A stretch of DNA of 64,000 nt from Spirochaetaceae bacterium (GTDB lineage Bacteria > Spirochaetota > Spirochaetia > Treponematales > Treponemataceae): NCBI GenBank assembly GCA_017618015.1, contig JAFZVC010000025.1, positions 166,374 to 230,373 of the forward strand, given 5' to 3'. Shown in pieces: positions 32,781-60,836 of this stretch (position 1 is the first letter of the stretch; the number at the start of each line of letters is the position of its first letter). The position numbers and the translations under genes are program-made. Below the pieces are notes generated by a model that saw nothing but the letters and a program-made list of their open reading frames with translations, made no database searches and was not told the DNA's origin.

Positions 32781-32820
32781 GTATTTTCAGTAAGGAATTT
32801 ACATCGTATATAATTACAAA

Positions 32821-32874
32821 AATGTCCAGTCTCTGATAGTGTTTTTAATTCTGTTAGCGATTGGACATTTTTTT
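32821..32874 (+). terminator. intrinsic terminator after lipoprotein gene
   Basis: 11-bp stem AATGTCCAGTC/GATTGGACATT (one G-U pair) followed by a T7 run. The loop is large. Confidence 0.5.
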
Positions 32875-32888
32875 GTTTGCGAAGGAAT

Positions 32889-33164: not shown

Positions 33165-33426
33165 CATTACCAAAACCACCTTGTCTGGCGAATTTATAGA
33201 TAACGTGAACACCTTTTTCTATGATGTCTTGGAATTCTTTTATTTCATTATCGGAGAAGCCGTTGTTTTGCCAACTGTAGTTTGGTAAAATGCATGTCGC
33301 ATTAATAAAGCCACCGTCTACTGGGCGTTCGATGTATACCTTAATCTTTTCGCAGTTATTCTCTTCGTAGATACTTGAATGGGTAATCTCGGTTTCGTCA
33401 GGCATAGTCATAAAAGGGTATTTCAT
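33151..33426 (-). CDS. hypothetical small protein (upstream partner of DUF4160-like gene)
   Basis: GGAGG lies 8 nt upstream of ATG 33426 (MKYPFMT...). It overlaps the next gene by 14 nt. Confidence 0.45.
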   Translation of the reverse strand: MKYPFMTMPDETEITHSSIYEENNCEKIKVYIERPVDGGFINATCILPNYSWQNNGFSDNEIKEFQDIIEKGVHVIYKFARQGGFGNAANF

Positions 33427-33546
33427 CTTTGTCGCCTCCGAGTCTGAATTATAACACATTTCGGACATCTTGCAATATTATCTATAACAGCTTGCTTTTG
33501 CATGGATATGCCCTATACTGGAAGTATCATTTTTCAAGGAGTTCTT

Positions 33547-36559: not shown

Positions 36560-37648
36560 ATGAACAAAAGAATTATTACTTTATTTGCCATGATTGCTGT
36601 TACGGTCGCATCTCTTGCAGCCCAGACAAATCTTCAGCCGCTGGCAACTGTAAAGCTCAATAAGGCAGAGACAATTACACTCAAGCAGCTTAAAGACCGC
36701 TGCGAAGTTTACAAGAAGCAGACGGGAATGACTTCTTTCTCGATTGACCAGAAGAAAGAGATTCTTGACTCCCTTATCAACGAAAAGCTTATCCTTCAGG
36801 CGGCTGCAAAAGCCGGTATGGTCATTACAGACACACAGGCTTATGAGCTTTATATTCAGACGCTCTCAAGCCAGGTAGGCCAGAACGTTACAGAATCCGA
36901 TTTCGCACAGCTCGTAAAACAGCAGTACAACATGAGTCTTGATGACTTTTTCAAGGCTCAGCTCGGTATGACTGGCGAAGAATACAAGGTTTTCCTCAAG
37001 AATCAGTATATCGCGCAGCAGTACGTGATGAAGGTTAAGGAAAGCGGATTCCTTGCCGTAGCCGCAACAGACGAAGAGATCCGTGCATATTACGAAATGA
37101 ACAAGCAGAGTTTCTACCAGAACGATATTTTGAAAGCATTCTTTGTTATTGTTTCTAAGGGAACGGATGCTGCTGCCGCCAAAAAGCTTGCAGAAAGCCT
37201 TTACAACGATGTTAACGCAAAGAAAGTTACTTTTGACGAGCTTAAGGTGAAGATGTCAGAGCCTAACTCCGGTTTCCAGGCTGGCGATATGTTCATCGGT
37301 AAGACATCTCAGGCTGCATCTCAGCTCGGTATTTCATATCAGGATTTGATGAAGATTTTCACCCGCTCAATCGGAAACGTTTCAGAGATTAAGGAAACTT
37401 CAACTGACTTCCAGTTCAATGTAATCCGCGCTCAGTATCCTGCCAAGCTCCTTGAGCTCAGTGATGTTGTTCAGCCGGAATCTACGACTACAGTATATGA
37501 GTACATCCGCAGCTATGTTTCACAGCAGAAGATGTCCGAATACTTCAATCAGGCAACGCAGGAGCTTTGCAACGAGCTTCGTACTTCCAATAACTATCAG
37601 ATGATGAAGACCGGTTCTGCGCTTGATTCTCTTCTTGAAGGTTGGTAA
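36560..37648 (+). CDS. periplasmic SurA-N/PpiC-like chaperone
   Basis: It has a signal peptide and a SurA N-terminal-like helical region (KKEILDSLINEKLILQAA). Weak by-eye assignment. Confidence 0.5.
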   Translation: MNKRIITLFAMIAVTVASLAAQTNLQPLATVKLNKAETITLKQLKDRCEVYKKQTGMTSFSIDQKKEILDSLINEKLILQAAAKAGMVITDTQAYELYIQTLSSQVGQNVTESDFAQLVKQQYNMSLDDFFKAQLGMTGEEYKVFLKNQYIAQQYVMKVKESGFLAVAATDEEIRAYYEMNKQSFYQNDILKAFFVIVSKGTDAAAAKKLAESLYNDVNAKKVTFDELKVKMSEPNSGFQAGDMFIGKTSQAASQLGISYQDLMKIFTRSIGNVSEIKETSTDFQFNVIRAQYPAKLLELSDVVQPESTTTVYEYIRSYVSQQKMSEYFNQATQELCNELRTSNNYQMMKTGSALDSLLEGW

Positions 37649-37654
37649 TCGTAA

Positions 37655-38071
37655 GTGGCAAGACGAAAAGGACGTATAATTGCTTTTCAGGCTCTGTACT
37701 CGTGGGATGTCTCCGGTATGGAGCTTGATGACCTTTTAAAATTCGAGTGGGTCAGCGATGAAACTAAGGAGCGTATGGATGATGAAAGCGATGCTTTCAC
37801 AAGGCTTCTTATTTCTGGAACGATAGAGAACTGCGCCGAAATTGATGAGGTTATAAAAAAGCATCTGATAAACTGGGAATTCGGACGGCTCAATAAGGTT
37901 GATTTGGCAATCCTTCGCATAAGTGTATATTCGCTCCTGTATCAGAAGGATATACATCCGACTATCATAATTGATGAAGCTGTCGATATTTCAAAAGACT
38001 TTGGAACTGATGATTCTTATAAGTTCGTCAATGCCGTTCTTGATAACGTAAGAAAAACATTGAAAGTATAG
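37655..38071 (+). CDS. nusB: transcription antitermination factor NusB
   Basis: GTG start. ARRKGRIIAFQALYSW ... R..... DLAILRISVYSL ... IIDEAVDISK match NusB. Confidence 0.85.
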   Translation: MARRKGRIIAFQALYSWDVSGMELDDLLKFEWVSDETKERMDDESDAFTRLLISGTIENCAEIDEVIKKHLINWEFGRLNKVDLAILRISVYSLLYQKDIHPTIIIDEAVDISKDFGTDDSYKFVNAVLDNVRKTLKV

Positions 38072-38072
38072 G

Positions 38073-39947
38073 GTGCAAATAAGTATGTCGCTATCCTTCC
38101 AAAATGCGATACAGTCCGGTCAGGCTCACAAAAAAAAGCTTGCCGGGCTTTTTTTGTTTTCTGCAAGACGTCAGCGCGCCGCATGGTCATTGTGTCTTTT
38201 CATTGCGGCTGTCGTGTTCTGTGCGCTGTGCCTTTCCGGATGCGGCGAGACAGTTTCAGACGCTTCTTTCGCGGAGCAGCTGGACCTTATAGACGCATGC
38301 ATCCTTAACGGACAGAATGAAGATGCTTTGACGCTTATAGACAAAGTATCTGATGACGCAATTGGACTGGTAAGACAGCTTTCAATAGCCAAGCGGTATA
38401 TAAAGCTTGGCGAGATGGAGAAAACAAAAAAGTTTGTGGAAGGTGCGCTCAAAAAGCAGCCAGAAGCCCCGGAACTTAATGCTTTGTACGCTAATATCCT
38501 GCTTTCTGACGGAAACGTACTTGGCGCGATGAAATACACCGACAAGCTTGCAAATACAAAATGGTCGCCGCTTTATACGGAAGTAGTCATCAGGCGGATT
38601 GTAGCCGAGAACATCTTTATGGACGGCGATTATACTGATTATTTTGTAAAAGCCGCCGAGGCCACGCATAACGAGCGGTGGCTCGTTGATGCTGCCGTAG
38701 TAGAAGCCAGACGTGGCAACTACAAGAAAGCGGCGTCATTGACACCGCCACTCGAGCTTTTTTATCCGGGTACAACCGAAAATGAGCGATTCGCGTATTT
38801 TTGGGCGCTCGTGAACTATGACGCCGGGTATTATCTTGAATGCGTCGATTTATGCAAGTTGTGCGGCAGCATCCCGGATGCGGCTTTGCTCGCATCCGAT
38901 GCGTGGCTCATGTCCGGTGAAGAGGAAGCTGCCAACAATTATTGGCTTGCTATAGTAAACGGTGCGTCCAGCAACTCTGCTTCCGGCGGCTCCGCCAACG
39001 CAAGAAAATCAATCCCAAAAGAAATATACTGCAATGCGGCTATGTATGCCATCAATCACAATGACCTTACAAATGCGTACAGCATCCTTGTCGATATGGT
39101 GTCAAAATATCCTGACTTTGACGAAGGCCTTGTAGTATACGCCAAATACGCGCTTAAAACATCAGGTTCCATGATAACGGAGCCTTATTCTGTGCTTAGC
39201 ACGCTTCAGCAGCAAAAGATGCGAGAAATCCCTTCAATCCCTGTTTCGGATGCATTAGCCCGCATAGAAAAATCGCTCGCGCTCGATATCGAACAAACGC
39301 CAGGCACTCCTGTATCAGAGAAATTCAGGCCCGCGCTTTATGTGGAGTATCTTAGGACTAAATGGCTCAGCGGAAACAGCACCCCGATCCAGTCCCGGAA
39401 AGATATCCTGCTGGCGTTGGAACGGTTCCGCCTGGAAAATGAATGCGAGCCATATCTTGCCGATTTCGCAGTGTGCTGGATGCTCCGCAATTACTACGAG
39501 AATGAGGCGGAAAGCTTCTTTTATGACTACATGGCGGAAAAATACGGGCTGGGTGCCGCAGATTTTGCGGATAACGCCTCGATGCTCAAGGACCGCGAAT
39601 GTATGATTGCGGCTTGGTTCAGACTGAAAAACGGCTTTATTGAAGATGCCCAAAAGCTTTATGAAACTTACGTTTATGAGCGTGGCTGCATCGGTGATAC
39701 AGTAGCTACCATGAATCTTGCCGCTATTTATAACACATATGTCTCTTGGCAAAAGGCTCTTGAACTGTACGGTACGCTTGCAGGAACCACAAAGAACCTA
39801 GAACTCGCCTCTGAAGTGCATTATCGTATGGGTACGATTCAACTTGCCCACAAAGACGAAAAAAATGCCCTGCTCAGTCTTTCTTACAGCATCAAGCTGA
39901 ATCCAGACAATAACAGGGCACGTCACTTGTTGAAAACGCTACAGTAA
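38073..39947 (+). CDS. TPR-like helical repeat protein with N-terminal membrane anchor
   Basis: Hydrophobic N-terminal segment. Multiple A/Y/L-patterned 34-aa-like repeats, with the end of the protein (…NALLSLSYSIKLNPDNNRARHLLKTLQ) TPR-like. Confidence 0.5.
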   Translation: MQISMSLSFQNAIQSGQAHKKKLAGLFLFSARRQRAAWSLCLFIAAVVFCALCLSGCGETVSDASFAEQLDLIDACILNGQNEDALTLIDKVSDDAIGLVRQLSIAKRYIKLGEMEKTKKFVEGALKKQPEAPELNALYANILLSDGNVLGAMKYTDKLANTKWSPLYTEVVIRRIVAENIFMDGDYTDYFVKAAEATHNERWLVDAAVVEARRGNYKKAASLTPPLELFYPGTTENERFAYFWALVNYDAGYYLECVDLCKLCGSIPDAALLASDAWLMSGEEEAANNYWLAIVNGASSNSASGGSANARKSIPKEIYCNAAMYAINHNDLTNAYSILVDMVSKYPDFDEGLVVYAKYALKTSGSMITEPYSVLSTLQQQKMREIPSIPVSDALARIEKSLALDIEQTPGTPVSEKFRPALYVEYLRTKWLSGNSTPIQSRKDILLALERFRLENECEPYLADFAVCWMLRNYYENEAESFFYDYMAEKYGLGAADFADNASMLKDRECMIAAWFRLKNGFIEDAQKLYETYVYERGCIGDTVATMNLAAIYNTYVSWQKALELYGTLAGTTKNLELASEVHYRMGTIQLAHKDEKNALLSLSYSIKLNPDNNRARHLLKTLQ

Positions 39948-39948
39948 A

Positions 39949-40215
39949 TTAGCCGATTACAGCAAGAATATCAGCAGCCTTAAGGATAAGGTGCTCTTCT
40001 CCGTCAATCTTAACGGCTGTACCAGCATATTTGTCGTACATAACGCGGTCGCCGGCTTTTACCTTGATTTTCTCTTTATCGTCTCCGACAGCGACAACAG
40101 TCGCAATCTGTGTTTTTTCCTGTGCTGTGTCCGGAATGATGATTCCGCTTGCAGTCTTTGACTCTGCTTTCTCGATCTTAACGAGAACTCTGTCCGCCAA
40201 TGGTGTAACCTTCAT
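39949..40215 (-). CDS. groES: co-chaperonin GroES
   Basis: [13 protein letters not shown]...[11 protein letters not shown]...G.V.AVG...D.V.Y.KY.GT..K.DGEE.LIL. No groEL is adjacent. Confidence 0.95.
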
Positions 40216-40249
40216 ATATTTCCTCCAAAAGGTTGAATTAAATTGGAAT

Positions 40250-40298
40250 TGTTCATTGTGAACACATTAAAGTTACGAAAAAAAAGCTCCATCGTCAA
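40250..40298 (-). promoter_or_regulatory. putative groES promoter with palindrome TGTTCA-N3-TGAACA at the predicted start site
   Basis: The minus strand reads TTGACG (40298-40293)-17 nt-TAACTT (40275-40270). The palindrome at 40250-40264 lies just downstream. No CIRCE (TTAGCACTC-N9-GAGTGCTAA) is present. Confidence 0.3.
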
Positions 40299-40507
40299 TA
40301 AAAATCGTCGTTGATGCTAACTCCTAACAGGAATTTGGCGGTTCCCGCCCGCACGATGTCGCGGGCGGTCGCTATGTTCCGGGTTCGCTTCCGCTCATTC
40401 CCACGCGGATAAACCGCATGGGAACAGCTTCGCTGCCCTTCACAGCGCTAACCGAGTTCATTTCGAAAAATTGTTTAAAAAAATTTTAGACTATACGTCG
40501 CTTCGCG

Positions 40508-40575
40508 CCGTTAGCGAGAGGAAATTTATTAAAATTCTGCGCTCACGCGCAGGACGCTATCATTCGGTGATAGTC
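40508..40575 (+). repeat. left copy of imperfect direct repeat bracketing the island
   Basis: CCGTTAGCGAGAGGAAATTTATTAAAATTCTGCGCTCACGCGCAGGACGCTATC... aligns without gaps to 46561-46628 with roughly 80 percent identity over the first ~55 nt (hand alignment). Confidence 0.7.
40557..40573. promoter_or_regulatory. candidate operator palindrome CTATCA-N5-TGATAG upstream of FliG-like/AAA+ genes
   Basis: Perfect 6-bp arms (CTATCAttcggTGATAG) 42 nt upstream of ATG 40615. The same half-sites and spacing occur at 42992-43008. Confidence 0.5.
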
Positions 40576-40614
40576 TGGTGCTTTACATTAATAGTGACAT
40601 TGAAGGAGTTGTGT

Positions 40615-41322
40615 ATGAGAAAAGAAAACACTGTTGAGACAAAGAAAGCGCAGGAATTGGTTTCAAAAACAATGGCTACTATCACCGAAGAAACCAAGAA
40701 TATCCTTATTGATTATATCCAGAACGGATATATTGAAAGCCTTTCAAAGGCAATTGCGTATCTCGGAATGAGCCCGGATGAAGCAAATATTCTTCTTGGA
40801 GATATGAGCGAAACTGTGAAAGAACGAATAACAAGCAATATCGCGCACTTTCAAAAACACGACGAAAGTGTCGTTTCTGAAGTTGAACATATTGTTCTGA
40901 CTCGTGGCAAAAAGCATGTTGCAGAAGAATACAAGGTAATCAAAGAGAACCTGCCATTTGCTGGAAAAGAGTTTGCTGAAAAATCCATACAGAATTTCCG
41001 AGCTAAAACACCCATTTTCCAGAAAACACTGGATGAATGTATTTTCACTTTTGAAGACATTAATCAGCTTGATGACCGTGAAATCCAAAAGATACTTTAT
41101 TGGACAGGACATAAGACACTGACTCTGGCTCTAAAAGGAGCTTCCAAAGAGCTTCGGAAAAGAATTTTCCGCAACAAACCCAAAAAAGAGGTGGCTATGC
41201 TCAAAGAAGCCATAGAGTTTTTGGGATCAGTTCGTGATTCGTGGATAGAAGAAGCTCAGGCAAAAATCGTAAAAAACGCTCTGCGTCTTGAAGCTGACGG
41301 TGAAATTGTTATTTGGAGATAA
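40615..41322 (+). CDS. FliG-like protein (middle + C-terminal domains only)
   Basis: The C-terminal half FEDINQLDDREIQKILYWTGHKTLTLALKGASKELRKRIFRN...EEAQAKIVKNALRLEADGEIVI follows the FliG_C signature (LDDR.IQ, LALKGAS.EL, EEAQ.KI, GEIVI). GAAGGAG RBS lies 6 nt before ATG 40615. At 235 aa it is about 100 aa shorter than canonical FliG. Confidence 0.65.
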   Translation: MRKENTVETKKAQELVSKTMATITEETKNILIDYIQNGYIESLSKAIAYLGMSPDEANILLGDMSETVKERITSNIAHFQKHDESVVSEVEHIVLTRGKKHVAEEYKVIKENLPFAGKEFAEKSIQNFRAKTPIFQKTLDECIFTFEDINQLDDREIQKILYWTGHKTLTLALKGASKELRKRIFRNKPKKEVAMLKEAIEFLGSVRDSWIEEAQAKIVKNALRLEADGEIVIWR

Positions 41323-41323
41323 T

Positions 41324-42982
41324 ATGGAAATCGGGATGAAAGAACCTAGAAAAATCAGATGGAATGTGCTGGCTGCAATTGATTATGTTTGCAAACAGAC
41401 AAAGTACAAAAAGCTAAAATACGAGAAAACTCCCCAAATGCAAAAAACACTGGAACGGCTTTGCTCTTATTTTGGCGGAATCAATGAGAATCAGGTTATT
41501 ATCCTCAGCGCAGTTCTTGACCTCCAGCTTTCGCATGACAAAATGACTAATATCAGCGATTTTTTCAATATGACCGCGCTCAGTTATCTTCAGCATAATA
41601 ATGAAATTGAGGATTTGGACGAGCGCGGTTTGTTGGATGTCGGGATAAACGAAGAAGGACATTCATACGATATCCCACAAATCGTAGTTACTGCAATTTT
41701 ACGTAACAGTGAAATAATCATTGAAAAGAAGGAGTTTGATCCAGTTGATTTCGTGAAAGAAGTGACTATGATCTTGGATAATAACTTGTACAATCAATTT
41801 AAAAAAAATAAAGAAAAAGTATATAAACTTGAAACGAAGAATTCAAAACAACCTTTTATAAAACATGTAAAAGCCCTTGTTCCGATACCATCCGATAGAA
41901 GTTGCTTTTATGCGATTTGCAGTGATTTTGTAGATGGTTTTGATACAAATTTGCAGCATGGTTTTCGTAGGGTATATGATAACAATGCAACTTCTAAAAT
42001 AAGAGCGATGCTCTCGGAGAGCCATGTGCTCTTAAAACATGGTCTTGTCGATTTTATCATAAAAGGCAATGTTATTGATTCAACTTTGACCCTGACGGAC
42101 AAAGCTAAAAAAATCTTTCTGGGTGAAAATGAATACCTCTATGAGCGGAAACTGAATGAGAAATCGCTTATCCTGCCGTCATCTATCGTTTCAAAGCATT
42201 TGTTCTACAGCCCGGAAAATCAAAAGCAGATTGATACGCTTTATTCCACTATAGAAAGTAAGAACCTTCTTTCTATACAAAACAGTCTGCGTTCTAAGGG
42301 GTTGTCGACAGGAATATGTATTCTTCTTTATGGAGCACCTGGTACTGGCAAGACAGAATCCGTGTATCAGATTGCAAAGGCAACGAACAGGCAAATCATT
42401 CATGTCGATATAAGTACGACAAAATCGTGTTGGTTTGGAGAAAGCGAAAAACTTATAGAACGTATATTTGTAGACTACAAGCGGTCATGTAAAAAACTTC
42501 TGGCGCACGGAAAAAGTGATATTCCTATTCTTCTTTTCAACGAGGCAGATGCAATCCTGCAAAAGCGCATGGAGTTTCATGGTGGTGGTGTTGAGAAAAC
42601 AGAGAATGCAATGCAGAACATCCTGCTTGAGAACATGGAAAAGTTTGAAGGCATTCTTATAGCGACGACAAACCTTGCCATAAATCTTGATGCAGCGTTT
42701 GAACGGCGGTTTCTGTTTAAAATAAAGTTCGACAATCCATCTGTGGAGGCAAAAACCGCGATTTGGAGATCGAAGCTTGAATGGCTGCCCGAAAATCAGG
42801 CTCAATTATTGGCGAACGAGTATAATTTTTCCGGTGGGGAGATTGATAATGTCGTCAGAAAGGCAACTATGGAAGAAATCCTTACGGGTTCAAGAGTTAC
42901 AATTAATCGGCTTGAAGAAATCTGCAATACGGAAAAACTGAATAATTCCGATTCCGGCAATAAAGTCGGGTTTCATGTATAA
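41324..42982 (+). CDS. classical-clade AAA+ ATPase with uncharacterised ~320-aa N-terminal region
   Basis: Walker A LYGAPGTGKTE, Walker B ILLFNEADA, sensor-1 IATTN, and SRH/Arg-finger region LDAAFERRF. The ATG lies 1 nt after the FliG-like stop. Confidence 0.8.
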   Translation: MEIGMKEPRKIRWNVLAAIDYVCKQTKYKKLKYEKTPQMQKTLERLCSYFGGINENQVIILSAVLDLQLSHDKMTNISDFFNMTALSYLQHNNEIEDLDERGLLDVGINEEGHSYDIPQIVVTAILRNSEIIIEKKEFDPVDFVKEVTMILDNNLYNQFKKNKEKVYKLETKNSKQPFIKHVKALVPIPSDRSCFYAICSDFVDGFDTNLQHGFRRVYDNNATSKIRAMLSESHVLLKHGLVDFIIKGNVIDSTLTLTDKAKKIFLGENEYLYERKLNEKSLILPSSIVSKHLFYSPENQKQIDTLYSTIESKNLLSIQNSLRSKGLSTGICILLYGAPGTGKTESVYQIAKATNRQIIHVDISTTKSCWFGESEKLIERIFVDYKRSCKKLLAHGKSDIPILLFNEADAILQKRMEFHGGGVEKTENAMQNILLENMEKFEGILIATTNLAINLDAAFERRFLFKIKFDNPSVEAKTAIWRSKLEWLPENQAQLLANEYNFSGGEIDNVVRKATMEEILTGSRVTINRLEEICNTEKLNNSDSGNKVGFHV

Positions 42983-42988
42983 AAAAAT

Positions 42989-43011
42989 AGCCTATCATTC
43001 CTTGATAGGCT
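42989..43011. promoter_or_regulatory. candidate operator / hairpin AGCCTATCA-N5-TGATAGGCT upstream of WYL regulator gene
   Basis: Perfect 9-bp arms. The element lies between the AAA+ stop (42982) and a TATAAT box (43017-43022) that precedes the WYL gene. No T-tract follows, so it is not a typical terminator. Confidence 0.5.
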
Positions 43012-43044
43012 GGGTGTATAATATTGATAATATGAGGAGGCTTT

Positions 43045-44046
43045 ATGGCGAAAGAAAGAGTGAAAAAACAGTTTTTGAACGGATATGAGCGTATCTTGAA
43101 AATCGATTATATGATTTCGAACTGGAATTATCCGAGCGTTGAGGATTTTGTAAACGAAACTGGAGCTTCCATTCCGACTATAAACCGCGACCTGCGGGAT
43201 TTGCGCCTGAAATTTGGTGCCGATGAGATATTGCAGTATGACAGGAACAAAAAGGGTTTTTATTACACGCTCCCGTCGTTCCGCATCCCGGCACTGCTCA
43301 CTTCCGAAAAGCAGATAATTGCCGCTCAGCTTATGTCAAATCTTTTGAATCTGATAAAAGACACTCCGGTTTACAAACAGGCAGTAGAGGTGTTTACTTC
43401 GCTTTCTAACGAGATTGATGAGGACACCAAGCTCAACGCTAAAAAGCTTTCTAACCGCATACTGTTTTTGGGAATGGAACCAGTTAAGATTGATGATGAG
43501 ATATGGACAAAGCTGGAGGAAGCCCTCGCGAATAATTATTATGTGAGCTTTAATTATAAAGGTCACAAGGAGAAGTTCAAAGTTCAACCATGGCAGCTTG
43601 TATACAGTCAAGGGATGTGGAGCTTGTATGCGTATAATCAGAATCCTGAAATAAAGAAAACACGCTTCTATAATCTTCCCGGAATGTACAATCTTGAGAT
43701 TGATAAGCAGAACACCTTTGAGTTGCCTGATGATTTTGAGTATACAAAACGCGCAAAAGGAAATTTCCGTCGGTACATTGGCAAAGAAACCTTGCAGTAC
43801 AAGATAAAGATTACTTCCGATAAAACGTTGGACTTCATAAAAACATACAACTGGGCTGAAGATCAGAAGTTCGAAAAACAGGATGATGGCAGTACGATAA
43901 TGACTTTCACGAGCAATCAGGACTGGCCGATTTTCGGCTGGGTTATGAGCCACGGAATGTACGCTCAACCGCTGGAACCTGAGTGGCTAGTGAACGAGTG
44001 GAAGAAAAACGTGAAAGAAATGGCGAAATTGGCGGAGAGGGTGTAG
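43045..44046 (+). CDS. WYL-domain transcriptional regulator (BrxR/CapW-like architecture)
   Basis: N-terminal wHTH (VEDFVNETGASIPTINRDLRDLRLKFG), YDRNKKGFYY, and WYL barrel (VSFNYKGHKEKFKVQPWQLVYSQGMWSLYAYN). GAGGAGG RBS. Confidence 0.8.
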   Translation: MAKERVKKQFLNGYERILKIDYMISNWNYPSVEDFVNETGASIPTINRDLRDLRLKFGADEILQYDRNKKGFYYTLPSFRIPALLTSEKQIIAAQLMSNLLNLIKDTPVYKQAVEVFTSLSNEIDEDTKLNAKKLSNRILFLGMEPVKIDDEIWTKLEEALANNYYVSFNYKGHKEKFKVQPWQLVYSQGMWSLYAYNQNPEIKKTRFYNLPGMYNLEIDKQNTFELPDDFEYTKRAKGNFRRYIGKETLQYKIKITSDKTLDFIKTYNWAEDQKFEKQDDGSTIMTFTSNQDWPIFGWVMSHGMYAQPLEPEWLVNEWKKNVKEMAKLAERV

Positions 44047-44075
44047 AAAAGCTAGGTTGATAAGGAGATTACGTT

Positions 44076-44756
44076 ATGCAATATACCAAAATTGAAAAGA
44101 TAATTAGAGATTCATTGTTAGATGTGAGAGACTTGTATACGAATAAACCAATAACATCGCATGTGATTTTTCCAAAATATTCTGACAACACAGAAAGATA
44201 TTCAGAGCAGGAACTAAAAAGCATCTTTTTGAGCAAGATTGAACAATCTGCATTTTATTATTCTGTCGAAACTCCATCCAGGAACAAATATCGGTTTGTT
44301 GAAAATGACGAGCCAAAAGTTTCATTCTGTGGAGAAGAATCAAAAGAGGTGTTTCAATCTTCTATGATAGATACGACTTTATATGATTCAAATAAAACTT
44401 TATTGAGCCATATAGAATTCAAATATGGACAAAGTTCCGTTTTTTCAATTCAAAAGGATTTTTTAAAGCTGATATGTGAATCACAAAATGTCAAGTACAA
44501 TTATTTTGCTCATTATCTTGGCAATTCAGACAATGGAACAAAAAAAGCGATTTTCAGTAAATATCGACAAGCATTGAATAATATTATGACTATCAATACA
44601 AACATTGATGATTTTGAGAGGAAGATTTCAAAGATCATCATTTTCGTGATGTTTGCAAGGTTGAATGAGATATATAGATTCTCTTTGAAAGATTTTGCTG
44701 AGAATCTCAACCTTGATGCTTATTTGGAAACAATCAGTCAGCCAACAGAACGGTAA
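44076..44756 (+). CDS. hypothetical protein with PD-(D/E)xK-like motif spacing
   Basis: AAGGAG RBS. D99-x14-E114-F-K116 (SSMIDTTLY...LSHIEFKYG) is preceded by an acidic helix (SEQELKS). Nuclease fold is inferred only. Confidence 0.45.
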   Translation: MQYTKIEKIIRDSLLDVRDLYTNKPITSHVIFPKYSDNTERYSEQELKSIFLSKIEQSAFYYSVETPSRNKYRFVENDEPKVSFCGEESKEVFQSSMIDTTLYDSNKTLLSHIEFKYGQSSVFSIQKDFLKLICESQNVKYNYFAHYLGNSDNGTKKAIFSKYRQALNNIMTINTNIDDFERKISKIIIFVMFARLNEIYRFSLKDFAENLNLDAYLETISQPTER

Positions 44757-44801
44757 AGAAGGAAAGCTAATCTGGCGAGTTTGATGAAGAGGGTGTAGAA
44801 T

Positions 44802-45419
44802 ATGAATAAGGAGATGAAAATGGAAGCGGCAAAGAATCAAGAATTAGATAAAAATCTTAATGATGAGGTTTTTGGTTACAATGGTAAAAAATATACTCTT
44901 TATGAATTACGATGTAGTGCAAATAATTATTTAACATCAGATCCTAAAGAATGCAGGCAAAAACTTAAGGAAAAATATGCAAAAGTTTATAATTGCATAG
45001 AACAAGAAGTTCCTCCTTCTATTCTGAAAGAAGTTTATAGTCTTGATTCAAATTTCAAAGAAATATGTGAACCAGTTTCTGGTTATACGAAGAATGATTA
45101 TTATGCCAGTAACTTAGGGAGAATTCGTCATTTTGGTAAGATTATGCTTCAGGATGATACGAATCTTAATGGATATCTTTATTTAAAAGATTATGCTGAA
45201 GGTAGCAACAAGCTATATAAATTTAAGTCAACAACTCCTGTATATACATTTATAGCCTGTGCTTTTTTTAAAGATTTCAATAACGGTACCGAGTTAAAGC
45301 ATATACATCATATTAATAATAATGGTTATGACTCTCGACCTGATAATTTAATTCCACTAACTCAGAAAGAACATTCAATTGCACATGGTCGAGTTATAAA
45401 AAATAGTAAGGAGGCGTAA
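44802..45419 (+). CDS. NUMOD4-HNH endonuclease
   Basis: YYASNLGRIRHFGK...NGYLY is NUMOD4-like. HIHHINNNGYDSRPDNLIPLTQKEHSIAH is the HNH_3 motif. The start could be ATG 44820, which has AAGGAG 6 nt upstream. Confidence 0.75.
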   Translation: MNKEMKMEAAKNQELDKNLNDEVFGYNGKKYTLYELRCSANNYLTSDPKECRQKLKEKYAKVYNCIEQEVPPSILKEVYSLDSNFKEICEPVSGYTKNDYYASNLGRIRHFGKIMLQDDTNLNGYLYLKDYAEGSNKLYKFKSTTPVYTFIACAFFKDFNNGTELKHIHHINNNGYDSRPDNLIPLTQKEHSIAHGRVIKNSKEA

Positions 45420-45420
45420 A

Positions 45421-46431
45421 ATGTTCGAATCAATTGGAAACAAAGATTTAAGACAGGTTTATAATGAACTTTGGGAAAATGAAGCAAATCGCCCTGCAGA
45501 GGTAATACCAACAAATCACTCGGAAGATTCTTTTCAATTTAAGATTAACAAAAAAAATGATATGTGTAATGAAATTGAAAGAATATTTGATCTTAATATA
45601 AAAGATTTTTCGAAAAAGTTTAAAGATGCCTGTTATTCACAGGGACAAGAATATAAGGAGATTTCTAAATTACATTCATCTGCTCTTTGTTCTTTACTTA
45701 TTTTTTCTGGGGTTTCCAACAATAATGAACTACGATTGACTCTCAATGGACAAGAATGTATTTTTTCTTCTGTTTTATTTGAGTATAAGAATAAGGTAAT
45801 AGGTTTTCCTTCGAATGTTGATGTTGTTTTAGTAGGGAAAAATAAGGATAAAACAAAGACAATAATTCTATTTCTAGAATCAAAATTTTCTGAATACCTA
45901 AGAGTTTCAAATATATTTGATGAACTTGGAAAAAGGTATATTACGAATGAGTATTCAAAAGAAATCTACACAGATGATTTTTTAAGAAATATAGGTATTC
46001 AATTGTGTAAAGATGAGAATTCCAAATTAAAAATCTTTTCAAAAAAAAGAAAAGGAAAAATGCGTGATTTCTATGGTTTCAAACCAATAGACGAAAACGA
46101 TGAAACTTATCTTGAGGGAATTAAACAAATGATTTCTCACTATATTGGTGTTGAACATTTTATTGAAGAAGATTTGGAAGATGATCGAAAAATAACTTAT
46201 TGTGCTAAAGACACAGAAGTCTATCTTGGAGAGATTCTTTTTGATTTCAAATTTAAGGACGCCAAAGAAAAGTTACGTAAATATTCTTCATATTACAAAA
46301 AACTAGCGAATAGGTTGAAAAAATTAAATCCAAACATTCATGTATTGGATGATATCTTAAAATATTCTTTATTTAAAGATTTAGATTTTGAAATAGCTGA
46401 TAAGGTAAAAAAATTTTACGGATTAGATTAA
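45421..46431 (+). CDS. hypothetical protein with PD-(D/E)xK-like motif spacing
   Basis: AGGAGG RBS, and the ATG lies 1 nt after the HNH stop. D134-x18-E153-S-K155 (PSNVDVVLVGK...ILFLESKFSE). Nuclease fold is inferred only. Confidence 0.45.
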   Translation: MFESIGNKDLRQVYNELWENEANRPAEVIPTNHSEDSFQFKINKKNDMCNEIERIFDLNIKDFSKKFKDACYSQGQEYKEISKLHSSALCSLLIFSGVSNNNELRLTLNGQECIFSSVLFEYKNKVIGFPSNVDVVLVGKNKDKTKTIILFLESKFSEYLRVSNIFDELGKRYITNEYSKEIYTDDFLRNIGIQLCKDENSKLKIFSKKRKGKMRDFYGFKPIDENDETYLEGIKQMISHYIGVEHFIEEDLEDDRKITYCAKDTEVYLGEILFDFKFKDAKEKLRKYSSYYKKLANRLKKLNPNIHVLDDILKYSLFKDLDFEIADKVKKFYGLD

Positions 46432-46465
46432 CAATAGAAATAAACATTTCTATCCCTGGTATTCG

Positions 46466-46504
46466 TCTCCGTTTATACTAGAAGTATGAGCGGAGATTTT
46501 TTTT
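46466..46504 (+). terminator. intrinsic terminator closing the WYL-nuclease operon
   Basis: 13-bp stem TCTCCGTTTATAC / GTATGAGCGGAGA (one G-U pair), 5-nt loop, then T8. Confidence 0.8.
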
Positions 46505-46560
46505 ACATAAAGCTCCGTAGCCTAATCACAAAGAAAACCGTTCTATGCATCACTTATGCT

Positions 46561-46628
46561 CCGCTAACGAGAGGAAATTTACTTAAATTCTGCACTCAGG
46601 CGCAGGACACTATCTCTCTATGATAATC
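46561..46628 (+). repeat. right copy of imperfect direct repeat bracketing the island
   Basis: CCGCTAACGAGAGGAAATTTACTTAAATTCTGCACTCAGGCGCAGGACACTATC... is the partner of 40508-40575. Confidence 0.7.
46610..46626. promoter_or_regulatory. degenerate third copy of the palindrome (CTATCT-N5-TGATAA)
   Basis: It occupies the same position within the right direct repeat as the left-copy palindrome. Both arms carry one change. Confidence 0.3.
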
Positions 46629-46656
46629 CTCCTGTTTATACTGTATAAACAGGAGG
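46628..46656 (+). promoter_or_regulatory. perfect 14-bp-arm palindrome that contains the RBS of ORF 46661
   Basis: CCTCCTGTTTATAC-T-GTATAAACAGGAGG. The right arm ends in AGGAGG 4 nt before ATG 46661. It is either an SD-sequestering hairpin or a dimer operator. Confidence 0.5.
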
Positions 46657-46660
46657 ATGT

Positions 46661-47029
46661 ATGGCAAATAGATTAGATATGGGTGAATACGCACTAGTAG
46701 AAAGATTCTACGTAGTTGAACCAATTGAAAGGCTTCGTAAAGTCGAACGAATCCAGAGTTTGTCTTTGGTAGAACGTTCTCATTTAATGCGGTTAGTGCA
46801 ATATTTGGAGCGAGATCGTGCCGAAATAATGGCAAAAAATCCGAATCCAAAGCATCTACCGTTTCCAAATGAAAAAAGCGTACAGCCACAAGAAGAAAAT
46901 CCAGCGTATATCCTTGATATCGGTAATCATAATAATGATGACATTTCTGGCGTAATTGTGGATATTGGTAATCATAATAATTATGACAAATCTGGTGTAA
47001 TCGTGGATATTGCCTGTCTAAGAAAATAA
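46661..47029 (+). CDS. hypothetical protein with internal 15-aa tandem repeat
   Basis: AGGAGG RBS 4 nt before the ATG. The C-terminus repeats DIGNHNN(D/Y)D(I/K)SGVIV. No family recognised, and coding status is uncertain. Confidence 0.35.
   Translation: MANRLDMGEYALVERFYVVEPIERLRKVERIQSLSLVERSHLMRLVQYLERDRAEIMAKNPNPKHLPFPNEKSVQPQEENPAYILDIGNHNNDDISGVIVDIGNHNNYDKSGVIVDIACLRK
46916..47011 (+). repeat. 45-bp tandem repeat, 2.1 copies, inside ORF 46661
   Basis: GATATCGGTAATCATAATAATGATGACATTTCTGGCGTAATTGTG versus GATATTGGTAATCATAATAATTATGACAAATCTGGTGTAATCGTG (39/45 identical by hand count), then GATATT. Confidence 0.8.
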
Positions 47030-47106
47030 CTCACTTTTTTAAGTTTCATACAAACGTGTTTAAGACAGCGGAGTTTACCGCTGGGCTAGGGCGTGGAGCA
47101 GTTGCG

Positions 47107-47190
47107 GACGTACATTAAGCGTCCATGCTTAATGTACTTAGCGGGTTTTGTAACAAAACCCGACAGTTTTTGCGCACATCCATGTGCGCA
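47107..47190 (-). repeat. three-hairpin GC-rich module, copy 2 (inverted)
   Basis: The reverse complement reads TGCGCACATggATGTGCGCA, CGGGTTTTG-tta-CAAAACCCG and GTACATTAAGC-atggac-GCTTAATGTAC. Order, linkers and H3 loop match copy 1. An extra outer stem GCGGACGTA/TACGTCCGC sits at 47104-47112 and 47202-47210. Confidence 0.7.
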
Positions 47191-47214
47191 GTTGAATGTC
47201 CTACGTCCGCAAGT

Positions 47215-47330
47215 CGGAACGACCGCGCGTTAGCGTATTTCGCAACAAGCACGGAGTGCGCCGTTTCCAGCTAGCTGCGGAAGGCCCGGCACGCCGTAGG
47301 CGGGCAGCCCCCATAATCATAATTAAATAA
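47215..47330 (-). repeat. modular GC-rich intergenic repeat, copy adjoining the three-hairpin module
   Basis: The reverse complement contains GCTAGCTGGAAACGGCGCACTCCGTGC. On the plus strand the block ends in GCAGCCCCCATAATCATAATT, reminiscent of CCCCCGCCTATCATATT in copy B. Confidence 0.45.
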
Positions 47331-47600
47331 AGAATCTGGTGGGGTGACGCGAAATGAACCATCGGGACAATAAAAGTGTCAAAATGAACCAGTAAAGGGG
47401 GTAAAAAGAAAGGGTGTGTCAAATTTACACAATAGAAGATAATAACAAAGAGTCAAAAAGTAAAGAAAAATCGATAAAAATCTGAGGATAAAAAATTAAG
47501 GTCGTATTTATACGATTTATCTGTCTGCTTTATAAGAAGATGGAAAGGGGTGCAGGTGCAAGGAAATTTTTGGAAATATTTTTTTAAGGATTTGTGATTT

Positions 47601-47616
47601 TGGCACGGTAATTGCA
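47601..47616 (+). promoter_or_regulatory. sigma-54 (RpoN) -24/-12 promoter for the RpoS-like sigma gene
   Basis: TGGCACGgtaaTTGCA matches the TGGCACG-N4-TTGCW consensus at every conserved position. It lies 39 nt upstream of ATG 47655, and GGAGG RBS sits at 47644-47648. Confidence 0.65.
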
Positions 47617-47654
47617 AGTATAGTTGTGTAACGGAAACGTAACGGAGGCAAAAA

Positions 47655-48494
47655 ATGGCTAATGATGATGTAATTCTTGCAATGTACCTTAAAGAGATCA
47701 ACAGAATCCCTCTCCTTTCACGTGATGAGGAAACCGATCTTGCAGCCCGCGCGAAAGCTGGTGACAAGATTGCAAAAGACAAGATTGTACGTGCGAATCT
47801 CCGCTTCGTTGTCAATGTAGCAAAAAAATATCAGAACCGTGGGCTTGATCTTACCGACCTTATCAGCGAGGGAAATATCGGGCTTCTTACTGCCATCGAC
47901 CGTTACGATGTGTCAAAAGGATACCATTTCATTTCTTATGCCGTATGGTGGATCCGCCAGGCAATTCTTAAGGCTATCTACGAGAAGTCAAGGATGATCA
48001 GGCTTCCGCTTAACCGCGCGAACGAGCTTGTTCAGATTGAGAAAGCTCGCAAATCTGTCGGTGGAAGCAAGACAGAAGAGCAGGAAATCCGCGAGATTGC
48101 AGAGATGCTCAACATGGACAAGACTCATGTCCGCGACCTTCTTAATATCGCAAGGGATATGATTTCGCTTGATAGCGCAGTGAATCCTGGCGATTCAGAC
48201 AGTTCATCGCTCGGAGAGTTCATTTCTGACTCACTTTACGATGATCCTGAAGAGCACGTTATGCAGACGAGCATGAGGGAAGATATAGACGCAGTTCTCG
48301 ACAGCCTTACGGAAAAAGAGGCTGAGGTTCTGCGCTGCCGCTTCGGACTCAACGGAAAAGAGTCGATGTCGCTTAAGGAAGTTGGCGATGTGTTCCATCT
48401 TACGAAAGAGAGAATCCGCCAGATCGAGAAGAAGGCTATCCGGCGCCTGCAGCATCCTACACGCATGAACAAGCTGGAAGCTTACGTAGCGTAA
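47655..48494 (+). CDS. sigma-70 family sigma factor, group-2 (RpoS-like), regions 1.2-4
   Basis: Region 2 DLISEGNIGLLTAIDRYDVSKGYHFISYAVWWIRQAI and region 4.2 SLKEVGDVFHLTKERIRQIEKKAIRRLQHP are RpoD/RpoS-type rather than FliA-type. It is only 279 aa. Confidence 0.85.
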   Translation: MANDDVILAMYLKEINRIPLLSRDEETDLAARAKAGDKIAKDKIVRANLRFVVNVAKKYQNRGLDLTDLISEGNIGLLTAIDRYDVSKGYHFISYAVWWIRQAILKAIYEKSRMIRLPLNRANELVQIEKARKSVGGSKTEEQEIREIAEMLNMDKTHVRDLLNIARDMISLDSAVNPGDSDSSSLGEFISDSLYDDPEEHVMQTSMREDIDAVLDSLTEKEAEVLRCRFGLNGKESMSLKEVGDVFHLTKERIRQIEKKAIRRLQHPTRMNKLEAYVA

Positions 48495-48607
48495 GCTTAG
48501 CAGGTCAGCGTTTGGGCGCGGGGCGCGCAAAGTGTGGCGGGCTTAAGTTTTGGCGCGGGTCGCGAGCCTAATTGCGGCGCGCGAAAGCTGGTTCGTGCTG
48601 GCTTTCG

Positions 48608-50836
48608 TCAGTTCCCAATCGTTTCTAAAATGTCCGCCCGCGCAAGTTCTAAGATCGCTTTGTCACGCACCGGGTCCGCTATTCCGAGCGTTATATAGCC
48701 CGACTGTTGGATGCCGTTCACGTCGCCAGGACCGCGCAACTTAAGGTCTTCTTCGCCAATATAAAAGCCGTCGGTGCTTTCGTGAAGCACTTTAAGACGC
48801 GATTTTCCAAGTTCAGTAAGTTTCTCACTGTACACAAGAAAACAGAATGATGCGGCAGTTCCTCGTCCTACGCGACCGCGCAGCTGATGAAGTGCCGCAA
48901 GCCCGAATCGTTCCGCATGCTCTATGACCATGCATGTCGCGTTCGGAACATCCACGCCAACTTCAACGACACTCGTCGCTACAAGGACTTGCGTTTCGCC
49001 TTTGCGGAACGATTCCAGAACGGCGATTTGGTCAGCCTCATCCGTTTTTGAGTGGATAAGGGCGCATTTGAACTCCGGGTAGACTTTTTGCGAAAGGAAA
49101 CTGAACATCGCTTCTGCTGATTTTAGCGTACTTGCAGTTCCGCCAGTCTGCTGTGTGTCTCGGTTCTGTGCGCTGGTTCCGCCGAGGTTTTCGGCTGTTT
49201 CATCCGCGCCAGACGCGTTGCTGTCAGCGTCGTCTGCAAGGCTTTCTATAAGCGGATACACAAAATAAGCTTGATGTCCGTTCCTAAGCTCCTGCCTGAC
49301 AGCCTCGTACACACGAGACTCGTTTCCCTCTTTTGTAAGGTATGTTTTTATTGGCTGGCGGCCGGCGGGCATTGATTTTATTATGGATATGTCCAGATCA
49401 CCAAAAATAGTGTGCGCGAGTGTCTGCGGAATAGGGGTCGCGCTCATAAGCAAAAAGTCGGGAGAGCGGGGCATTATGCCGTTCGCGAGTTTTTCGCGCT
49501 GTACTACGGATTGTCGCCCTTTGTCGAGAACCGCGCTCCGCTGGACGACACCAAAGCGGTGCTGCTCGTCTATTATCACAAAGCGAAGGTCGTGGTACAA
49601 AACTGATTGCGAGAATACGGCATGCGTGCCTATTACTATGTCGATATCGCCGTTTTTAAGAGCGGATAGGAGCGGCGTTCGTCCAGAAGCCTTGAGATTG
49701 CCGGTAAGAAACGCGACTTTTATGCCGAGCGGTTCAAGCAGTTTTGCCGCGTTGTTTGCGTGTTGACGCGCCAGTATTTCTGTTGGTGCCATCATGACGC
49801 ACTGCCCGCCGTAGTCTATTGTGCGGAGCGCGGCAAAAAATGCAGCAAGCGTCTTTCCGGAGCCTACATCGCCCTGTAAAAGCCGCGACATATGGAACCG
49901 CGCGGGAACTGCGTTATCAGCACTAATATCCGGCTGGTTGTTCGACAAGTCTATGTCAAAGTTCATCTCGTAAATGACTTTTTTTTGGTCTTCTGTAAGT
50001 TCAAACGGCAGCCGGTCGAGCAACTGCTTTTGTCGCGGAGAAAGCGTTTCTTCAAACGTCTTTTTGCTGCCATCAGCTGTTTTCATCGCTTCGGCGGCTG
50101 TTTTCCTGTGTTCCTGCGAACGCCGAAGAATCGTCTCCTGAAAGTGGTAAAGCTCCTCGTATATAAGCGAATATTTCGCCTTTTCAGCCATCTCTATGTT
50201 GCGCGGTTCGTGCATAGAAAAAACAGCTTCTTTTTTCAGCATAAGTCCGCGTTTTTCTATGATGCTTTCAGGCAGCTCGTTCTCTATCCCTCGGCAATAC
50301 TCTTTCAGTGCTTTGCCAATCACCTTGCGAAGCTGCGTTTGCGAAAGCCCTGCCGTAAGCGGATATATCGGGAAAACGGCGGAACCAGGAACCGGCTTGT
50401 CAAGAAACTCGTCTATAGATGCGGATTTCGCAAGACATGTCGCTTCGAACGCTGATGTCTGAATCTCGCCATATCGTGGTGCAAATCTTCCTGTGACAGC
50501 TATAACTGACCCGACCGGAAGCGATTTTTCCAAAAAAGAGCGGTTAAAGCAAACAAGCGCTGCAGAAGCTGTTCCATCATCAATTATTATTTTAAGCGTG
50601 CGCATCCTGCCGAACCCGAACCAGTCATGACGGAGTACTTGCGCTATCGTGTGAACTTTTGACGTGCTGTTCCAAGCGGAGAGCGGAATTTTCCGTGTCC
50701 TGTCCTCCCACGTTTTTGGCCAGTAAGAAAGAAGATCTGAAACTGTAAAAATGCCGAGCCTTGCAAGAAGTTTTTCCAAAGAAGGACCGACTCCTGCTAT
50801 CGTGCTGACTGGCGTTCCGATATCCTGTAGCTTCAT
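48608..50836 (-). CDS. recG: ATP-dependent DNA helicase RecG
   Basis: Wedge/OB N-terminus, motif I GDVGSGKT, DEQHRFGV, and QLRGRVGRG followed by the TRG motif region. Confidence 0.9.
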   Translation of the reverse strand: MKLQDIGTPVSTIAGVGPSLEKLLARLGIFTVSDLLSYWPKTWEDRTRKIPLSAWNSTSKVHTIAQVLRHDWFGFGRMRTLKIIIDDGTASAALVCFNRSFLEKSLPVGSVIAVTGRFAPRYGEIQTSAFEATCLAKSASIDEFLDKPVPGSAVFPIYPLTAGLSQTQLRKVIGKALKEYCRGIENELPESIIEKRGLMLKKEAVFSMHEPRNIEMAEKAKYSLIYEELYHFQETILRRSQEHRKTAAEAMKTADGSKKTFEETLSPRQKQLLDRLPFELTEDQKKVIYEMNFDIDLSNNQPDISADNAVPARFHMSRLLQGDVGSGKTLAAFFAALRTIDYGGQCVMMAPTEILARQHANNAAKLLEPLGIKVAFLTGNLKASGRTPLLSALKNGDIDIVIGTHAVFSQSVLYHDLRFVIIDEQHRFGVVQRSAVLDKGRQSVVQREKLANGIMPRSPDFLLMSATPIPQTLAHTIFGDLDISIIKSMPAGRQPIKTYLTKEGNESRVYEAVRQELRNGHQAYFVYPLIESLADDADSNASGADETAENLGGTSAQNRDTQQTGGTASTLKSAEAMFSFLSQKVYPEFKCALIHSKTDEADQIAVLESFRKGETQVLVATSVVEVGVDVPNATCMVIEHAERFGLAALHQLRGRVGRGTAASFCFLVYSEKLTELGKSRLKVLHESTDGFYIGEEDLKLRGPGDVNGIQQSGYITLGIADPVRDKAILELARADILETIGN

Positions 50837-60787: not shown

Positions 60788-60836
60788 AGTGTCTAGAAGT
60801 TCGGGCAAAACGCAACTCCTGTGCAAATTCACGTAT

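Follow-up and report, generated by a model that had tools for sequence, protein, structure and literature searches.

A short FliG paralogue paired with an AAA+ ATPase on a WYL-type island of a Spirochaetaceae genome points to a possible, switchable interference with the flagellar motor

A 64,000-nucleotide (nt) stretch of a Spirochaetaceae genome (contig JAFZVC010000025.1, the whole stretch being referred to here as the window) carries two closely spaced open reading frames (ORFs) on its forward strand: one for a 235-residue paralogue of FliG, which consists of the middle armadillo module (ARM_M) and the C-terminal domain without the N domain (FliG_MC, ORF A; 40615–41322), and one for a 552-residue AAA+ ATPase (ORF B; 41324–42982). 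In the flagellar motor, the central protein that receives torque is FliG. The sequence features of the pair, its relatives, and its genomic setting point to a locus that would interfere with the motor in a switchable manner, and the arrangement is best explained as a bicistronic operon within a mobile, low-GC island of a rumen Spirochaetaceae genome. Both ORFs, their coordinates, the 1-nt gap between them, and the peptide motifs quoted in an earlier reading of this DNA (the original prediction) proved exact when the sequence was read again. ORF A has a ribosome-binding site (GAAGGAG) ahead of its ATG at 40615 and ends with TAA at 41320–41322; a single T follows, then the ATG of ORF B at 41324, the stop codon of which lies at 42980–42982. 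A 100% identical database entry is annotated as a Spirochaetaceae metagenome-assembled genome.

The original prediction that ORF A is a FliG paralogue lacking the N domain is borne out by profile, structure-based, and alignment comparisons. Of the FliG domains expected from profile searches, the C-terminal one was recovered clearly (Pfam FliG_C, residues 129–233, 1.4e-29), whereas FliG_M stayed below the Pfam cutoff (0.0027; 18.3 bits against 25 bits). The crystal construct of the Thermotoga maritima FliG middle and C-terminal domains (PDB: 1lkv) nevertheless aligns without a break to residues 30–235 (1.3e-24), and because this alignment runs end to end we regard the middle domain as real despite its weak Pfam score; the C-terminal domain also aligns to PDB: 1qc7. 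Alignment with full-length FliGs places the start of FliG_MC at about residue 95–110 of the canonical protein, so that the whole N domain is missing, and a FliG_N match (Pfam, E = 0.038) sits on the ARM_M repeat and not on an N domain. Against the fliG equivalog model TIGR00207, FliG_MC scores 103.7 bits and misses the cutoff of 226.7 bits widely.

Homology to canonical FliG (T. maritima; PDB: 1lkv, 4fhr, and 3hjl) covers the entire middle and C-terminal domains (ARM_M and ARM_C), yet the canonical protein has a FliF-docking N domain, the EHPQR motif, and a Gly-Gly hinge, all of which FliG_MC lacks. In the alignment, EHPQ of the FliM-binding EHPQR motif is replaced by G-Y-I-E and the motif arginine by Ser or Asn, and the Gly-Gly hinge is deleted. 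Retained are an MFxF-like hinge (IFTF), the ALKG motif, and the torque helix. Five charged positions in this region (K264, R281, D288, D289, and R297 in Escherichia coli numbering) are what we take, from the mutational work of Lloyd and Blair, to be the torque-generating positions facing MotA; FliG_MC keeps K264, D288 (as Glu), and R297, while the clade to which the window belongs carries R281K and D289A. FliG_MC further differs from canonical FliG in lying outside a flagellar operon and behind a WYL-type operator. The original prediction had placed the pair away from any flagellar locus, and Pfam scans of likely-gene ORFs of at least 100 residues across the 64-kb window indeed returned no flagellar, chemotaxis, or stator family; ORF A is not the fliG of a flagellar locus.

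FliG_MC is one of many such proteins. An exhaustive phmmer search yielded dozens of 50%-identity clusters, 229–254 residues long, that align with it end to end, and further members in large number came from a profile search. An organism could be assigned to five members or loci, in each case Treponema or Spirochaetaceae. Residues at the torque-generating positions were counted in 41 diverse short FliGs (E. coli numbering). Position 264 is Lys in 33 of them and position 281 is Arg in 29 and Lys in 4; position 288 is Glu or Asp in 40, position 289 Asp in 37, and position 297 Arg or Lys in 30. EHPQ, by contrast, is kept in none of the 41, its usual replacement being G-Y. As judged from these residue patterns, the short FliGs are a distinct family that has kept the stator-contact charges and lost the FliF and FliM anchors. 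Like FliG1 and FliG2 of spirochaetes (BB0221/BB0290 of Borrelia burgdorferi and TP0026/TP0400 of Treponema pallidum), they are extra copies of FliG set apart from the chief task in flagellar assembly and proposed to modify how the motor behaves; unlike them, they have no docking domain, form a separate group in a crude tree, and come with dedicated partners (PcfJ-like or AAA proteins). Literature searches on FliG paralogues, PcfJ, and flagellar decoys returned nothing on the short-FliG family, and no description was found of FliG-like proteins in WYL- or defence-type islands or of a FliG family without the N domain. The components are of known kinds; the family and the combination appear undescribed.

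The tree in question, a crude neighbour-joining tree, sets the short FliGs apart from seven canonical FliGs and divides them into two clades. Clade B (the window and the related loci L001, L016, and L052) is the clade found on islands and behind the operator described below (R-box). In clade A, which comprises five lineages in ordinary chromosomal settings (L017/18, L019, L020/21, L022/23, and L051), the short FliG gene is overlapped or closely followed by a gene for a PcfJ-like protein of 520–573 residues (L017:8732–10294, L019:8677–10398, L020:8756–10405, L022:8750–10348, and L051:7741–9306). This protein is the commonest partner of short FliGs, ahead of the AAA ATPase. Only its last ~110 residues match the Pfam PcfJ domain, a four-sequence profile searched against the PDB found nothing, and a single-sequence AlphaFold2 model was unusable (predicted local distance difference test score, pLDDT, 32.6). 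Its conserved H-N-C-V-A-S-Y motif, together with Cys and Glu residues that are invariant, suggests an enzyme or a metal site. In L001, FliG_MC is followed by a gene for a 251-residue protein, which was considered as a relative of the ATPase N-terminus, of the FlhA cytoplasmic domain, or of the other compared proteins and rejected, as no relation was found.

No short FliG was found in the phage collection, in plasmids, or in IMG/VR, within the limits set by four Listeria phage records, unannotated and only weakly matching (E = 5e-5), and by plasmid matches in unannotated stretches; those plasmid matches that were looked at proved to be complete fliG genes of megaplasmids or chromids. A record labelled "Bacteriophage sp." from human faeces (MT835480.1) was rejected as a phage-borne short FliG: positions 37212–49838 hold flgC-fliE-fliF-fliG-fliH-fliI-fliJ, and because this is an ordinary flagellar operon the stretch at least appears to be bacterial, and the record mislabelled.

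The FliG_MC–AAA locus recurs in two further metagenome contigs, L002 and L015, beside the same groES gene; a metagenome scan with FliG_MC returned a single locus, the same as that of the window. The two genes are 1 nt apart in the window and L015; in L002 the distance is 5 nt. Among the three copies, the ratio of nonsynonymous to synonymous substitution rates (dN/dS) is 0.16–0.22 for FliG_MC and ranges over 0.10–0.22 for ORF A and ORF B together, so both genes are maintained under purifying selection. Synonymous divergence (dS) between the window and L002 is ~1.5 in the flanking TPR gene (38073–39947) against 0.24–0.65 in the FliG_MC, AAA, and WYL genes; because it is so much higher in the flank than in the island genes, it hints at a recent exchange of the island between strains.

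The pair stands at the left end of an island of ~7 kb (~40.3–47.2 kb) with a GC fraction of 0.26–0.42 against ~0.47–0.50 in the flanks. tRNA genes, Rfam families, and att-type flanking repeats were searched for, with no sign of an integration site. The FliG_MC gene is preceded by a 71-nt promoter/operator cassette on the forward strand (40505–40575), seen in an intergenic alignment of the window, L015, and L002 and repeated with 82% identity at 46558–46628 (direct repeat D2); the repeat was considered as an att site and rejected, since it is the promoter cassette. Two unstranded palindromes are predicted operators of a WYL-WCX repressor. R-box 1 (40557–40573; CTATCATTCGGTGATAG) lies 42 nt before the ATG of FliG_MC, and R-box 2 (42992–43008; CTATCATTCCTTGATAG, with extended arms AGCCTATCA/TGATAGGCT) lies 37 nt before the ATG of the WYL gene and is directly followed by an extended -10-like element, TGTATAAT. 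Exact copies of the pattern CTATCA-N5-TGATAG number two in the window, where 0.10 would be expected; none of 100 shuffles yielded two, and matches with at most one mismatch are nearly confined to island loci across 643 kb of compared sequence.

Both boxes occupy the same positions in L002 and L015. A single ~70-nt unit of R-box and FliG_MC promoter is found in the window and in L015, and L002 has three such units in tandem (L002:7800–8066), so that the operator copy number differs between strains. In L016, the FliG_MC of which is 45% identical to that of the window, boxes precede FliG_MC (with one mismatch), a gene for an IstB/DnaA-like ATPase, and the WYL gene. L052 has six boxes against 0.04 expected, among them boxes before both of its FliG_MC genes (one with a single mismatch, the other exact), the WYL gene, and a gene for soluble FlhA. 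In L003-6 and L007/8, a box stands before the AAA gene and FliG is absent.

The gene behind R-box 2 (43045–44046, forward strand) encodes a WYL-WCX transcription factor of probable BrxR/CapW-type architecture, the predicted repressor of the island. Pfam detects WYL (1.7e-07) and WCX (2.7e-06), and PADLOC WYL profiles match at 1.2e-22 and 5.1e-16, the latter over residues 14–258; the N-terminal region resembles a helix-turn-helix by eye only, as no family of that kind was detected. Genes for close homologues lie beside FliG_MC or AAA genes in L002, L015, L016, L052, and L003-6. BrxR, the founder of this type of regulator, acts as a repressor; the sites it binds, at the promoter of its own gene and at a promoter of the cargo, are inverted repeats with arms 5 bp apart (PMC9122601). 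Given this precedent and the recurrence of the palindromes, the FliG_MC–AAA pair is regarded as part of a WYL regulon with predicted operators. BrxR/CapW regulators share with the window protein the WYL and WCX domains, 5-bp-spacer palindromes at own and cargo promoters, and a variable, defence-like cargo; they have been characterized mostly from Proteobacteria, whereas here the host is a spirochaete and the regulon, of a kind not yet described, includes fragments of flagellar proteins.

ORF B was assigned a classical AAA module in its C-terminal third by the original prediction. The class stands (PF00004, residues 333–470, 4e-21); the extent does not, since the module with its lid spans about residues 300–540, nearer 45% of the protein. 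Walker A (GAPGTGKT), Walker B (LLFNE), the pore loop (KSCWFGESEK), sensor-1 (TTN), and the arginine fingers (ERRF) are invariant or nearly so across 54–57 aligned homologues. The catalytic Glu of Walker B is invariant; at N406 (codon 42539–42541), Walker B has Asn for the canonical Mg-coordinating Asp, a substitution that is invariant in the 54–57 family members, including those of Bacteroidota. An AlphaFold2 monomer model built with 54 homologues (pLDDT 81.6) has two helix-helix-helix-hairpin modules, at about residues 37–116 and 177–257, ahead of the AAA module. We describe these as winged-helix-like, an identity read solely from the secondary structure of the model, because Foldseek searches of two libraries were dominated by the AAA core; a profile of the N-terminus had no match in the PDB, and a relationship of the N-terminus to PcfJ was rejected (hhalign probability 0.2%).

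Foldseek with the model retrieved Rpt, Vps4, p97, and Rix7 at ~1e-11, and phmmer against the PDB retrieved VAT, Cdc48, AFG2, and CdvC. These matches point to a core of the substrate-threading or remodelling type, like that of Rpt, Vps4/CdvC, Cdc48/p97/VAT, AFG2, and Rix7. ORF B belongs to the same AAA clade as Vps4/CdvC, Cdc48/p97/VAT, and Rpt, with a Vps4-like pore loop (K-x-x-W-x-GESEK) and an RRF arginine-finger motif, and differs from Vps4, Cdc48/p97/VAT, and Rpt in having a single AAA module, a bacterial-specific N-terminus, and a Walker B of the form hhhhNE. The ATPase family is very large (7999 of 8000 scored candidates pass E <= 0.001), and the members listed are mostly ~550 residues long and often labelled Treponema. 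It extends to Bacilli, Flavobacterium, and Bacteroidales, where members sit beside WYL-WCX regulators, GmrSD, and DUF2779 with no FliG nearby; members on IMG/VR contigs are likewise without FliG. A genome-contig scan with the ATPase gave six loci.

A lack of co-occurrence of the two families would have counted against the original prediction, but the two do occur together. Short FliGs stand with classical AAA genes in at least four other lineages: a contig with the order FliG_C, 256-residue protein (weak FHIPEP match), AAA of the window type, WYL, and REase-ARP (P0027); L017, where an ATPase of the window family lies 2 kb from the FliG_MC–PcfJ pair; L022/23, where a 755-residue double-AAA gene is directly upstream of FliG_MC–PcfJ; and L052, with AAA genes near its FliG_MC genes. 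An obligate two-gene module it is not, since the AAA family usually occurs without FliG and the more frequent partner of short FliGs is the PcfJ-like protein. What is constant in the window's clade is a predicted operator, common to the pair and to the gene of a presumed BrxR-type WYL repressor, within an island of mosaic make-up; the original prediction did not note this.

FliG is not the only flagellar protein represented on these islands. L052, a Treponema-type island, encodes on the minus strand (L052:13459–16738) a 388-residue protein that is the cytoplasmic domain of FlhA only (FHIPEP positions 332–652 of 657, 5.9e-70), its gene preceded by an R-box, and two proteins of 235 and 363 residues that begin with the cytoplasmic domain of FlhB (FlhB_C) and continue into further C-terminal regions; the genes lie in or adjoin the WYL operon. 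Judged by domain content, the islands gather anchor-less copies of three cytoplasm-facing flagellar components, namely FliG, FlhA, and FlhB. Free cytoplasmic domains of the export gate have a precedent in FlhX and other stand-alone FlhB_C paralogues, and FlhX can serve flagellar export. Unlike FlhX, FliG_MC and the FlhA-C and FlhB-C proteins of L052, the latter extended at the C-terminus, are carried by islands as cargo and preceded by a repressor box.

We tentatively propose that FliG_MC is an inducible, soluble rotor mimic which would compete for stators or for sites in the FliG ring and so uncouple the motor, with the ATPase driving exchange or recycling. At rest, the WYL protein bound to the R-boxes would keep the FliG_MC–AAA operon silent; a phage- or damage-linked signal would release it, and the soluble rotor fragment would be made. 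FliG_MC would not dock on FliF, because the N domain is absent, or on FliM, because EHPQR has become GY-x-x and its Arg is lost, yet it would still present a stator-facing C-terminal domain and both armadillo modules. Loss of the anchors together with a retained stator face would most likely make it a competitor. By titrating MotA stator units, or else by intercalating into the FliG ring or capping it, the protein would break the coupling between torque generation and the rotor. The ATPase, translated together with it, could extract resident FliG subunits so that the mimic is exchanged in, or could recycle complexes of the mimic. The whole would amount to an inducible motor-shutdown module carried with nuclease-type defence cargo. 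For the brake or clutch that the original prediction offered as a conjecture, some indirect support comes from the conserved charges at the stator contact, the restriction of named short FliGs to spirochaetes, and the soluble FlhA and FlhB pieces that the regulon holds at other loci. YcgR, MotI/DgrA, FlgZ, and EpsE are motor brakes or clutches; they are PilZ-domain proteins or a glycosyltransferase and not homologues of FliG. The logic proposed here is theirs, that of a signal-dependent soluble protein acting at the FliG–MotA interface, with the difference that the inhibitor would mimic the rotor itself and is paired with an AAA+ ATPase and a WYL repressor.

Several observations weigh against this proposal. 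Because R281K and D289A change two of the five torque-helix charges in the window's clade, its stator binding may be weakened or retargeted. The step assigned to the ATPase is the weakest link: FliG is not a neighbour of most AAA-family members, and none was found in ~20 other lineages compared, so the ATPase may function on its own in the same regulon, and its coupling to FliG_MC may be operon convenience. Its competence as an ATPase is assumed, given a Walker B of hhhhNE and not hhhhDE. The WYL-WCX protein had no sequence match to the solved BrxR/CapW structures, so the BrxR-type assignment is one of domain architecture. The rationale of stopping flagella during phage attack by way of a blocked flagellar receptor does not apply, because spirochaete flagella are periplasmic. 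The PcfJ-like partners are not explained by a motor mimic, and the pairing of FliG with PcfJ outside WYL islands in clade A fits a generic adaptor role equally well.

Such an adaptor role is the core of the explanation that survives best beside the rotor mimic, and we consider it possible, if on balance doubtful: the locus would be an anti-phage system independent of the motor, in which an ATPase of the IetA/IteA kind would be the sensor or the effector, with a co-opted FliG fold as its adaptor, substrate-recognition subunit, or inhibitory subunit, the same fold serving PcfJ-like and other partners elsewhere. The best named relatives of the ATPase are indeed the anti-phage IetA/IteA of IetAS/IteAS, with which ORF B shares the classical AAA core and the defence-island setting, and the surroundings (a BrxR-type regulator, nuclease-like cargo) as well as the modular downstream partners of short FliGs (AAA, PcfJ-like, the 251-residue protein, or none) fit this view. 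The match, however, is confined to the core, at residues 289–533 for PADLOC IetA (1.3e-27) and residues 292–536 for NCBIfam IteA (NF042959, 6.1e-26; 91.4 bits, the cutoff being 510), the tandem winged-helix N-terminus is peculiar to the ORF B family, and Pfam, PADLOC, and NCBIfam scans found neither an IetS protease nor any other protease family among the island genes. A co-opted scaffold would also be unlikely to keep the pattern of MotA-contact charges over 41 diverged members; restriction to flagellated spirochaetes would be unexpected while the AAA and WYL families reach non-flagellated phyla, and no account would be given of why the regulon also holds soluble FlhA and FlhB domains.

Somewhat less probable, and in our view unlikely, is that FliG_MC and the ATPase are independent cargo of the WYL regulon that happened to be joined in the lineage of the window, with no contact or dependence between them. 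The distribution of boxes speaks for it, with AAA alone behind a box in L003-6 and L007/8 and FliG_MC alone behind one in L016 and L052, as does the mosaic nature of the island cargo. Mere coincidence sits poorly with a spacing of 1–5 nt kept in three diverged copies under purifying selection and with the recurrence of non-orthologous classical AAA genes next to short FliGs (the double-AAA gene of L022/23, L052, and L017).

Three flagellar proteins occurring as soluble, docking-less fragments in WYL-controlled islands, with interaction surfaces conserved and anchoring determinants lost, could also be expected of a decoy or guard. Soluble FliG_MC, joined at other loci by FlhA-C and FlhB-C, would bait phage or mobile-element factors that attack the motor or the export gate, and the ATPase would sense or resolve the capture. 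We think this improbable. A bait is normally constitutive, and these genes lie behind a repressor box; the literature searched held no phage factor that targets FliG, FlhA, or FlhB, and there is no sign of an arms race, given that short FliGs were not found in the phage, plasmid, or IMG/VR collections. Least credible of all, and hardly tenable for the window protein, is a housekeeping second rotor protein, a FliG1/FliG2-like variant in the motors of one cell pole that gives rotational asymmetry: two FliG paralogues are known in spirochaetes, B. burgdorferi FliG1 being asymmetrically located (PMC7225975), and clade A short FliGs lie in ordinary chromosomal contexts, but T. pallidum FliG-1 and FliG-2, for all their different interaction partners, both interact with FliF (PMC1943423), whereas FliG_MC has neither N domain nor EHPQR, falls below the fliG equivalog cutoff, and is found on a low-GC island with variable cargo and a repressor box.

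A broader form of the rotor-mimic reading, which we consider speculative and unlikely to hold in full, takes in the other flagellar fragments. WYL-switched islands in rumen and gut Treponema would express, on a phage or damage signal, a kit of anchor-less FliG_MC, FlhA-C, and FlhB-C that, jointly with AAA+ unfoldases, would stop or take apart the periplasmic motor and the export gate; motility arrest would be a programmed arm of the immune or stress response, and the PcfJ-paired short FliGs would be its chromosomal version.

The regulators known to us at the FliG–MotA interface are all unrelated to FliG. If the rotor-mimic reading is true, inhibition or remodelling of the rotor by self-mimicry with a built-in switch would be a new principle, and motility shutdown would join the anti-phage response, BrxR-type regulators being known for their control of anti-phage islands; two fields that rarely meet would thereby be linked. 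The short-FliG family provides candidates for the modulation of spirochaete motors, including motors that differ at the two cell poles, and the tandem winged-helix AAA+ ATPases and the PcfJ-like partners, both uncharacterized families, now have a testable context.

Behind the WYL gene, the operon continues into variable cargo on the forward strand (44076–46431): a 226-residue protein, a 205-residue NUMOD4/HNH protein (Pfam NUMOD4 4.4e-06, HNH_3 6.2e-04), and a 336-residue protein homologous to WYL-operon genes in L016 and L052. The 226- and 336-residue proteins each have a D...ExK-like motif, read as a nuclease motif by eye. A terminator-like hairpin follows at 46465–46497. The cargo is variable because the genes after WYL differ between the window and L002. 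PADLOC found no complete known defence system in the island; the neighbours in related loci elsewhere include GmrSD, DUF2779, REase-ARP, HicAB, and PhdYeFM.

A further copy of the promoter cassette, with a degenerate R-box (CTATCTCTCTATGATAA) at about 46610–46626, is followed by a 122-residue ORF (46661–47029), the whole spanning 46558–47029 on the forward strand. A tandem 45-nt unit within the ORF (46916–47005) encodes DIGNHNN(D/Y)D(I/K)SGVIV. A perfect 16-nt palindrome at 46626–46658 (ATCCTCCTGTTTATAC / GTATAAACAGGAGGAT) surrounds the AGGAGG ribosome-binding site of the ORF and could be a translational switch for it. At the right edge of the low-GC stretch, a gene at 47655–48494 encodes a 279-residue RpoD/RpoS-like sigma factor, which was rejected as FliA, its RpoD/RpoS-like score being far above that of the FliA/WhiG model; a further match (PADLOC, 5.4e-47) is to the sigma-like portion of MzaA, an anti-phage protein.

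Elsewhere in the window, positions 29802–34365 form an apparent second low-GC patch (GC 0.35 at 32–34 kb) with an HTH_3 regulator (31403–31723), a DUF285 protein (33502–34365), and two ORFs of 498 and 301 residues without a Pfam match. At 57818–61790, a 989-residue ORF with no Pfam match at E <= 1e-5 adjoins an N6/N4 DNA methylase gene on the opposite strand (60837–61790), and the two could be an uncharacterized restriction-modification or defence pair.

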